Part shown: positions 30,001 through 33,000 of the stretch, in pieces
Position numbering within the stretch: position 1 is the stretch's first letter
Layout of the letters: the number at the start of each line of letters is the position of its first letter
From: Verrucomicrobiota bacterium
Lineage (GTDB): Bacteria; Verrucomicrobiota; Verrucomicrobiia; Chthoniobacterales; Xiphinematobacteraceae
Length of the DNA: 64,000 nt
Reading direction: 5' to 3'
Assembly: GCA_023269545.1 (NCBI GenBank)
Contig: JAHFTB010000003.1
Location: forward strand, 74,901 to 138,900
Made by a program: the position numbers

Positions 30001-33000
30001 CCCATTCCGACATTGAAGGCTCTTCATGGGTGAGTTTCGTGATAGCGGCATGCGCAGCAGCTTTGATGTCAGGGCGTAGTTGGGGATGTTTTCCGGCTGG
30101 ATGCTCCCTATCCAAATAATTTACTAGTTCTATAAAGGCGTTATTTTTATTATATTTTGAGTTACCTTTGTTTGCATCGACAAATTCCCTCACGCGAGAG
30201 AGATGTTTGGATATTATGGATTTATTATTATAACCTACTTGGTCTCCCTCCTTTTCCAGGTCATTTCTTTCTTGTTCATTCGGTGTATTATTAATTGCAG
30301 CCTGTATGTCTTGGTGGGCCGCTCTTCGTATAAATTCCTCGCAATTAATATTGCCTTCCGAAAATTCATAGAACAAGTGATTTTCTAATTCTGAGATGGA
30401 TTGATTGTATTCAGTAATTAATGTTTTTAACTTGGCGAGTGTCGTATTTTCAATATTTTGGCCAGTGATAGCAGGTGAGGTAGCGCTTCTTATATTGCGA
30501 GCTATTACTAAATTAGTAAGTTTAGGATGGGATGCTTCGGTTTTGATGGACTGCTTTTCTGGTGTGATACTGCTTCCATTCGAAGTAGTAGATGACAGAA
30601 CAGGGTATGAAACAGCTTGTGGCTGTACAATTGATATACTCATAAGTCCGTAATATCAGCGCCATGTGAAAATAAACAATGAACAGGGATATCTAAAAAC
30701 TTACTGAACAGATTTTGGCTCCTCGACTGCCCGAATATTTCATCCTTTCTTGGTTGCTTCGCTATAGCTGAACAGAATCGAGGAAGTGAGTCAGAAACCG
30801 AAGGCCAACCGACTGACTTTTTTCCGGATGAAATTGAGTGCCCACAATATTTCCCTTAGTAATACTGGACGCGAAACGTACTCCATACTCGCATTCTGAA
30901 GAAACGACATCCGTATTTTCTGGGATAGGATAATATGAATGAACAAAATAGACATTTACAGGACTCACAAGGCCCTGAAAAAGAGCAGGTTGTTGGATAA
31001 TTAATTCATTCCACCCCATGTGAGGAACCTTCAACTTGCCATCAGGAAAACGCACCACGCGACCGGCTAAAATCTCAAATCCCTTTACATGGGGAGATTC
31101 CTCGCTGGATTCGAAGAGGAGTTGATAGCCCAGACAGATTCCGAGATAGGGACGTCCTTCTTGAAGCCACTGAAGGATGGGATTCCAAAGGCCGGTACCG
31201 TGCAAATTCTTCGCACTTTCTCCGAAAGAACCGACACCGGGTACCGCGAGGATATCCCATGTGGGCCTCAAAAAACCGGAGGGTTGGTCTATCACATGGA
31301 CAGCCGCCCCGCATGCTTCCAATGCCTTGCCTACACTGCGTAAATTTCCACTACCGTAATCCACTAAACCGACTACTTTTTGTTTCATGGATTCACCTCT
31401 TACAGAAGCCCTTTGGTACTTGGGACTCCCTGTACACGAGGATCGATCCTTGTAGCCGCATCCATAGCTCGTGCCAGAGCTTTAAAAACAGCTTCCGCCA
31501 TGTGATGGGAATCCCGGCCATAGAGTATTTCCACATGCAGAGTGATTCCTGCGTTTGTCGAAAACGCGCGCAAGAACTCCTCTACCAACTGAAAGGGGAA
31601 AGCCCCCATTGCTTCCATACCTCGGGGAGCATGATAGACCAAGAACGGCCTTCCACTGAGATCCACAGTGGCGCGGACCAGCGTCTCATCCATTGGAACA
31701 TAGCTCCAACCATAACGAGTCACACCGGCCTTGCTTCCGAGCGCCTGGGCAAAAGCGGATCCCAGAGCAATTCCCACGTCCTCGACAGTGTGGTGAAAAT
31801 CTACTTCTATGTCTCCCTGAGCGGAAATTTCCAAACCAAAGAGTCCCTGGCGGGAAAAGAGATCCAGCATATGGTCGAAGAAAGGGATTCCAGTAGCGAT
31901 TCCCCGATTCCCATCGCCATCCACATCCAGAACCAAGCGGATCTGTGTTTCCTTAGTAGAGCGCTCAATCTTTGCAGTACGTGACATAATCCTTAACAGA
32001 TTAACTGACGTTACGCACTTTGAGGAGCTCTGGGAGCAAAAAAACCATTTTAGCCTACAAGGTTTCCTTTTTTGCGTAACATCACAGATTAATGTGACAT
32101 AGATCACCGACAATGGAAAGCGCAGAAGTCCTTCTTCACTTAGGTTGTAGTGCAGATTTAGGAAAATAAGCTTCTTGTTGAGGAGGAAGGACATGTGTTC
32201 CTCCGCATAGATTGAGAATAGCCATAAGAATGTGATAGCGGATTTCGGTGGTGACCACACCATGCTTGGCGAGGTCCATAGGGAGACCGAGATGAGAGAT
32301 ATGAAATCCGACCCGAGCAGCTTCCTTACCCAAGGCTTCGCTGGTTTCTTGTAGAGCATGGATGACAGTGGTTTTGGACACCGCATATTTGATGCGCTCA
32401 CTTAGGAGCAAGAGATGTTGCTTTTGGTTATCGGATCCGACTTGGACAATTGGTTCCGCCTCTTTAGGCAAAGATTGGTGCTGTTGATCTAGAATTTTCA
32501 TCCAGTCCATCAAATGAGAGATCAGAGATCGTTTTTGTTCCTGAGAAACCTTAAGATCTTCTGCTGAAATAATTGGTTTTGTCAGATCAAGCAGCGGATC
32601 AGGCGAAGATGTGACTTTGGATGGGAGTATTAAATGAGATGTTTTAGGAGATAGAGTTTTCATTATAGTAGACGGAGTGCTGAGCAGTTAAGTCACTGAA
32701 AAGCACATGCTTTTCAGGGCCCTGTGGGTCAGGGCATAGGGACCGACAGAAAAAGAAGAGAGCGGTATTTTAATGAGAGATTTCGAATCTGCGACCGCGT
32801 GAATTTTTTTTGCAGATTCAGAATCCTCCGAGTGATTGCATCCTGGAATGCAGATGACATCCTGGAGCAATCCATGCAGCGCGGGGGTGCACCTCTAAAA
32901 TACTTTTAAGAATCTGTTAGAGAATCGGGGGATTCACTATTCCGATCTTTCCCATCTTTTCGGCGCTTTTAAGCTGATCACATCACTGGCAACCCGGGCA

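Follow-up and report, generated by a model that had tools for sequence, protein, structure and literature searches.

Why does a sequence of roughly 90 bp recur five times between the genes of one 64,000-nucleotide stretch of a Verrucomicrobiota genome, and what placed it there? The stretch, called the window below, is contig C51:74901-138900 of its source genome (G000), a draft of 2.55 Mb in 59 contigs with 46% G+C and 98% completeness. The original prediction described the repeat, one copy of which (copy C) lies just upstream of hisB, as resembling a miniature inverted-repeat transposable element (MITE), and considered that it might act as a terminator, attenuator, small RNA (sRNA) gene or promoter. 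We conclude that the repeat is very probably a MITE, an 82-bp non-coding derivative of an ISAba11-group insertion sequence (IS) of the IS701 family, orphaned in this genome and placed as neutral, selfish DNA. What is new is the family itself; its kind is already known and will not surprise specialists in mobile elements.

Anatomy of the repeat family

A window scan with a 25-mer of the element, allowing up to 3 mismatches, returned 10137-10161 (minus strand), 22220-22244, 32022-32046, 42807-42831 and 47151-47175, while the same scan matched in 0 of 100 dinucleotide shuffles. MAFFT alignment of the five copies gave about 85 conserved columns between diverged flanks, and a repeat search agreed, which places all five copies where they had been predicted. 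Across the contigs of the source genome, blastn found 188-190 matches, 168 of them near full length, with sharply bounded ends that are conserved genome-wide.

The mobile unit is an 82-bp core, CTGACGTTACGCA...TGCGTCACATCAC (full consensus CTGACGTTACGCACTTTGAGGAGCTCTGGGAGCAAAAAAACCATTTTAGCCTACAAGGTTTCCCTTTTTTGCGTCACATCAC), which is non-coding and measures 80-83 bp in 134 of 144 copies. It is bounded by imperfect 13-nt terminal inverted repeats (TIRs): CTGACGkTACGCA matches GTGATGTkACGCA, the reverse complement of the other end, at 10-11 of 13 positions in the source genome and at 11 of 13 in G003, a sister genome of the same genus (Verrucomicrobiae metagenome-assembled genome (MAG) CAVPNI01). 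Beyond the core, conservation falls sharply, except for a 7-nt pattern on each side with the palindromic consensus TTAnTAA. When left and right flanks were compared at every offset, a signal appeared at offset 7 only (per-position match 0.74-0.92; neighbouring positions 0.33 and 0.12). The two 7-mers were identical in 62 of 144 copies and agreed at six positions in another 38, against 2.2 and 14.2 expected when flanks are shuffled among copies with the target composition preserved, and the perfect pairs comprised 36 distinct 7-mers. These flanks are a true target-site duplication (TSD) of exactly 7 bp. The ends are imperfect inverted repeats, as proposed, but the supposed element of about 90 bp with TTAA ends resolves into 82 bp plus a 7-bp TSD, with TTAA belonging to the latter. 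A piggyBac-like TTAA duplication, or a 3-4-bp duplication of TAA, was ruled out by the same offset scan.

On average, two cores are 89% identical (11% divergence), and 156 cores comprise 152 different sequences. Three copies match the consensus exactly, and the median identity to it is 95%. They fall into at least two subfamilies with linked variants, the minor of which resembles the copies in the sister genome. Seven tandem arrays (five doublets and two triplets) are built head-to-tail from an 89-bp unit consisting of the core and the same 7-mer. Adjacent copies in these arrays are 96% identical, compared with 89% for random pairs. Since neighbouring copies have private variants in common, the arrays are attributed to local duplication of the 89-bp unit, and the same variants rule out repeated insertion into a regenerated target.

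Two longer elements with MITE ends were also seen in the source genome, at C49:52220-52372 (153 bp) and C15:7532-7858 (327 bp), in each of which unrelated additional sequence separates CTTTGAGG from GGGAGC; they may represent a MITE that has received an insertion, or intermediates from the parent IS.

Insertion sequences with matching ends

The sister genome and plasmids of other phyla hold a transposase-bearing element with the TIRs of the MITE. Scanning the sister genome for the TIR pattern revealed TIR pairs about 1.0-1.1 kb apart, which are ISs with perfect TIRs CTGATGTTACGCAG/CTGCGTAACATCAG and frameshifted transposase genes. A hidden Markov model (HMM) search found two intact ISs (1,106 and 1,108 bp) whose TIRs read CTGATGTTACGCA/TGCGTAACATCAG and whose open reading frames (ORFs) span about 350 amino acids (aa); one of the two ISs is flanked by the exact 7-bp TSD TTAAATA. 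The transposase scored 362 bits against NCBIfam NF049921 (IS701 family; cut-off 250) and also matched Pfam DDE_5 and DDE_Tnp_1. Its closest annotated relatives are intact IS701-family transposases on plasmids, with 57-65% identity, one of which is labelled 'group ISAba11 transposase'. Another TIR pair in the sister genome, 2.2 kb apart (L067, C1:327652-330882), is a decayed copy of the parent IS broken by an IS630/Tc1-like transposase fragment (...DNATFHKRSD...YSPDLNPIEHKW...).

We read the ends of seven of the plasmid ISs, which are 1,095-1,145 bp long and come from Beta- and Gammaproteobacteria and Cyanobacteria. Six of the seven, as well as the ISs of the sister genome, carry CTGA(T/A)GTTACGCA at both ends, and the Polaromonas H6N element has CTGACCTTACGCA instead; for comparison, the ends of the MITE read CTGACGTTACGCA and TGCGT(A/C)ACATCAC. 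Exact 7-bp TSDs flank three of the seven (TATTTAA, TTACTAA and TTATTTA), three more have 4-6 of 7 matching positions, and the flanks of the Thiothrix element are unrelated. Intact relatives with the same TIR and exact 7-bp TSDs were found on Polaromonas and Acinetobacter plasmids. Because TIRs, TSD length and target agree, the MITE shows both the ends and the insertion footprint of the IS701/ISAba11 clade, whose 13-nt TIR and 7-bp TTAnTAA target are conserved across at least three phyla. By TIR identity and by TSD length and target, the MITE can be assigned to the ISAba11 group, the transposase itself being absent from the source genome and present in the sister genome as two intact ORFs. Conserved ends, true TSDs and a transposase-bearing element with the same TIRs together bear out the MITE-like reading of the original prediction.

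The sister genome also contains a second IS701-family IS of 1,122 bp with TIR CAGGACTTACGCAAAA..., present in at least 18 identical intact copies (L084, L086-L089, e.g. C4:517625-518596). Its TSDs are exact, 5 bp long and without TAA preference, and it looks currently active because so many identical intact copies carry such exact duplications. In the source genome this IS has left short remnants only (C30:5246-5332, C26:25993-26083, C27:42460-42503, C29:15185-15368, C2:14632-14677 and C55:63237-63275). Its different outer TIR bases (CAGGACTTACGCA) and the length and target of its TSDs rule it out as the partner of the MITE.

State of the partner in the source genome and its relatives

Searching the whole source genome by tblastn and HMM, we found no intact IS701-family transposase and no NF049921 match, and tblastn gave nothing significant beyond a 36-aa remnant. 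Remnants of the parent IS persist at C26:30986-31113, C52:23671-23819 (internally deleted), C49:111738-111833, C1:6923-6957 and C51:109064-109104. All are contig-internal, and the contig ends, which were checked, contain no parent-IS sequence. The last of these remnants lies in the window, so that the earlier statement that no autonomous partner is visible there holds for an intact one, but a decayed end of the partner is present. TIR pairs 0.1-5 kb apart in the source genome were rejected as autonomous elements, as each pair proved to consist of separate copies or fragments on either side of housekeeping genes (such as dprA-like, proA and alanine dehydrogenase-like genes). One TIR-bounded element of about 150 bp (C26:30986-31135, CTGATATTACGCAGG ... 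GCGGAACATCAG) is for the most part right-end sequence of the parent IS and is a second, independent deletion derivative of it.

With no intact transposase, only remnants, and copies averaging 89% identity, the MITE family looks orphaned in the source genome. It could instead still be mobile there, through a transposase missed by the draft or through cross-mobilisation by another IS701-family enzyme. The copies equal to the consensus and the high median identity to it would suit such mobility, as would the 43% of TSDs that are still perfect and the persistence of intact partners in the genus, and short-read MAG assemblies often drop multi-copy ISs. However, no intact gene was recovered from a genome that is 98% complete, the IS-like DNA consists of short remnants within contigs and none at their ends, nearly all cores are distinct, and the other IS701-family IS of the genus differs in outer TIR bases and TSD length. 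We therefore regard continued mobility as unlikely.

Of 61 relatives compared, three of the five that belong to the genus contain the element, and all 56 others from the order lack it; an exact 20-mer of the element occurs in only one other species-level genome, the sister genome. The latter has about 141 candidate copies with the same TIRs and 7-bp TSDs. Genus members of 2.5-3.0 Mb carry 140-190 MITE copies, and two single-contig genomes of 0.9 Mb placed in the same GTDB genus (G002 and G004) contain neither the MITE nor an IS701-family transposase, a pattern like that of strongly reduced genomes that have lost mobile DNA. A single genus thus displays three states: intact partner ISs with MITEs in the sister genome, MITEs with IS fragments in the source genome, and neither in the 0.9-Mb genomes. 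When orthologous sites were compared, three sites occupied in the sister genome were empty by length in the source genome and one was occupied in both, although the coding DNA is only 70-80% identical and a single 7-mer cannot be read at the empty sites. The simplest history would be an element present in the common ancestor, separate amplification in each lineage, and later loss of the transposase in the source genome.

MITE variants with a conserved left half also occur in Ga0153924 metagenome contigs (L078-L083), from a related organism that is 73-80% identical to the source genome; their interior contains a GC-rich hairpin and, after it, a T-run, a terminator-like module (e.g. CCGGCAGCCGCCGGATTTTTTTGCGTAACATCAC).

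Placement relative to genes and tests for a regulatory role

Among 164 clearly intergenic copies, 98 lie between tandem, 36 between divergent and 30 between convergent genes, while 95.6, 39.1 and 29.3 are expected from intergenic length. As these counts match the expectation, copies are not concentrated at either the 3' or the 5' ends of genes. Where copies overlap crude ORFs, the overlap is confined to ORF termini or stems from a spurious 5' extension of the ORF. A stop codon falls within the TSD or at the edge of the core in about 30 cases: 14 stops fall on the TAA adjoining the core, 8 lie three nt earlier, and 7 use the TGA of CTGACG inside the core. The contact with gene ends is explained by the TTAnTAA target preference. 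Between co-directional genes, 61 copies are oriented opposite to the genes and 37 in the same direction, a modest and unexplained bias that depends on crude ORF calls.

Searches for an RNA or regulatory role were negative. Rfam 15 at gathering score, run on the whole window, gave no match to the element, and even at E<=1 nothing matched in 31950-32150. RNAalifold, applied to either strand of 102 copies from two species, yielded no consensus structure, and the polymorphic TIR position showed no covariation between the two arms (p=0.21). The hairpin of the consensus was modestly more stable than shuffles on the reverse strand (z=-2.73) and less so on the forward strand (z=-1.45), and the TIRs alone yield such a hairpin. 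We found no terminator-like site on either strand of 31900-32200, the region around copy C, and no sigma-70-like or other promoter-like site in copy C. The interior stem is formed mostly by A-T pairs, and it is not the GC-rich stem-loop directly before a U-tract that characterises intrinsic terminators. With placement neutral as well, the suggested function as terminator, attenuator, sRNA gene or promoter received no support.

A further idea is that the orphaned family has been partly co-opted at gene boundaries, docking on gene ends, supplying or replacing stops, and offering in its interior A7-hairpin-T6 a weak, orientation-dependent transcription insulator. The supply of stops would have a basis in TTAnTAA, which has stops on both strands, in the core, which starts C-TGA, and in the roughly 30 cases above. 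If the idea were true, an insulator would explain the orientation bias, and the metagenome relatives with a GC-rich hairpin and T-run would be a stronger version of it. We judge such co-option quite improbable. An element under selection as a cis-acting or RNA element at gene boundaries, whether a weak bidirectional terminator or insulator (A7-hairpin-T6), an attenuator, an sRNA gene or a promoter, is very unlikely. Many copies do adjoin gene ends, the consensus can fold into a long hairpin, with a z of -2.7 on the reverse strand, the orientation bias exists, if only modestly, and the metagenome variants look terminator-like. Yet the target preference accounts for the contact with gene ends, convergent, divergent and tandem placement equals the neutral expectation, every structure and site search was negative, and the forward-strand fold is no better than shuffles. 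In addition, copy C lies between hisB and anything upstream, so it should not be a strong terminator in that orientation if hisB is expressed.

Finally, the repeat might be of the REP/REPIN or PATE type, with mobilisation by a single-strand Y1 transposase (RAYT or IS200/IS605 family) in place of a DDE enzyme. That reading would fit a short, palindromic, high-copy and strictly intergenic sequence with some tandem arrays, but it is almost certainly wrong here, as Y1 transposases make no target duplication and the MITE has an exact 7-bp TSD, the TIRs are those of a DDE IS701-family element, and the arrays are head-to-tail repeats of core and TSD instead of inverted REPIN doublets; RAYT genes were not searched for.

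Proposed origin of the family

The favoured explanation remains a MITE derived from an ISAba11-group IS. The MITE would retain the 13-nt TIRs recognised by the transposase and about 55 bp of interior, and a DDE transposase supplied in trans by the full-length 1.1-kb IS would insert it into TTAnTAA with duplication of 7 bp, as the footprints suggest. Because this target contains a stop codon on either strand, one of which each duplication would restore, many copies sit precisely at gene ends without damage to the gene. Selection would keep copies out of genes, with otherwise neutral placement, and local duplication of the 89-bp unit would later have turned a few copies into tandem arrays. Since the autonomous IS has decayed to fragments in the source genome, the ~190 copies are most likely immobile fossils that drift apart. 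They make up about 0.7% of the genome and can now be masked and named in annotation and assembly, and an ORF whose prediction extends into the element can be identified as an artefact or as having an altered C-terminus.

Several points weigh against this explanation, the orientation bias among them. Transposition is inferred from footprints, and an unassembled IS copy may exist in the 59-contig draft. The sole other assembly with an identical HisB has the same spacing, giving no presence/absence difference. The TIRs of the MITE differ from those of the IS at 1-2 of 13 positions, and similarity outside the TIRs is slight; as MITE and IS share little else, derivation by internal deletion is only plausible.

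The copies in the window and their surroundings

The five window copies and the IS remnant are listed in Table 1. A gap of 10 nt separates the TSD of copy C from the downstream hisB start (31987), and the copy lies immediately 5' of the AAGGA ribosome-binding site of hisB. Transcripts of hisB, a minus-strand gene, would contain copy C as its reverse complement. Copy A, a member of the older TAGG/ACCCAC/TCTC subfamily, sits between a glycosyltransferase gene (8651-9841, minus strand) and a FabZ-like gene (10237-10638, plus strand). The stop codon TAG of cydB (22284-23294, minus strand), read as CTA at 22284-22286, is inside the right TSD of copy B and touches the core. The ispG stop is 18 nt before the TSD of copy D, and a carbonic anhydrase gene follows that copy downstream. 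The neighbourhood of cydB, ispG and hisB is thus as first described. Copy E, whose right TIR has decayed (...TTTTTTTGGCGCAACCCGG) and which has no recognisable right TSD left, looks the oldest of the five.

Table 1 Copies of the MITE and remnant of the parent IS in the window.
Feature	Position	Strand	Details
MITE copy C (reported finding)	31998-32092	+	TSD AGATTAA 31998-32004; 81-bp core CTGACG...CATCAC 32005-32085; TSD AGATTAA 32086-32092
MITE copy A	10090-10185	-	core 10097-10178; flanks TTAATCC/TTAATCT, 6/7 match
MITE copy B	22196-22290	+	core 22203-22283; TSD CTAGGAA/CTAGTAA, 6/7 match
MITE copy D	42783-42876	+	core 42790-42869; perfect TSD TTAATAA on both sides
MITE copy E	47127-47214	+	left TSD TGGGTAA; core 47134 to about 47214
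Solo left-end remnant of parent IS	34164-34204 (C51:109064-109104)	+	41 bp, AACTGAGATTACGCAGCCAGGGATCTGATAAACAAGCGAGA; 83% identical to positions 1-41 of the sister-genome IS (L069)

Of the short direct repeats noted earlier, CCTAG and TTAATAA fall within or coincide with the true TSDs (7 bp) of copies B and D, but GTGACATA is not the TSD of copy C. This 8-mer stands at 31981-31988 and 32094-32101, outside the true TSD, and includes the hisB start (ATGTCAC, minus strand), the first 7 nt of hisB being repeated upstream of the MITE; the repeat is probably due to chance.

Other features of the window include a 48-nt direct repeat (6299-6346 and 6365-6412, 98% identical at 66-nt spacing), which is unrelated to the MITE. 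The Rfam matches at gathering score are 6S RNA (51.4 bits, 48602-48786, minus strand) and two tRNAs (8575-8648 and 47496-47567, both plus strand), with copy E about 280 nt upstream of the second tRNA. The 41-bp IS remnant lies just upstream of an RNase HII-like gene (33191-34120, minus strand).

Comparison with known systems

Correia/NEMIS elements of Neisseria and RUP of Streptococcus pneumoniae resemble the MITE in being short, non-coding, bounded by TIRs, flanked by TSDs and present in about a hundred or more intergenic copies, and also in often adjoining gene ends and in mobilisation in trans by an IS transposase, which here would be the case by inference. The ISs from which they derive are of different families, their TIRs are different, and their target duplication is the 2-bp TA. 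Correia elements are documented to have promoter, terminator and RNase III effects, none of which is supported for this MITE. REP/BIME and REPIN sequences are likewise high-copy, intergenic, palindromic and sometimes clustered; unlike the MITE, in which a 7-bp TSD is combined with the TIRs of a DDE IS, REPs are 20-40 nt long, have no TSD and are linked to Y1 (RAYT) transposases.

The closest system is the ISAba11 group (IS701 family, NF049921). ISAba11 is related to IS701 and has 13-bp inverted repeats, and one insertion was reported with a 6-bp TSD (PMC7519801), in contrast to the 7 bp found here. The MITE also differs in that it is 82 bp long and encodes nothing, its TIRs deviate at 1-2 of 13 positions and have C rather than G as the last base, and it resides in an uncultured member of the Verrucomicrobiae instead of in a proteobacterium or cyanobacterium. 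The parent ISs of about 1.1 kb match the intact plasmid relatives of 1,095-1,145 bp in size, the TIR core CTGA(C/T)GTTACGCA is common to MITE and ISs, and the 7-bp TSD at a TTAnTAA-like target recurs in the intact members from Polaromonas and Acinetobacter plasmids and from the sister genome.

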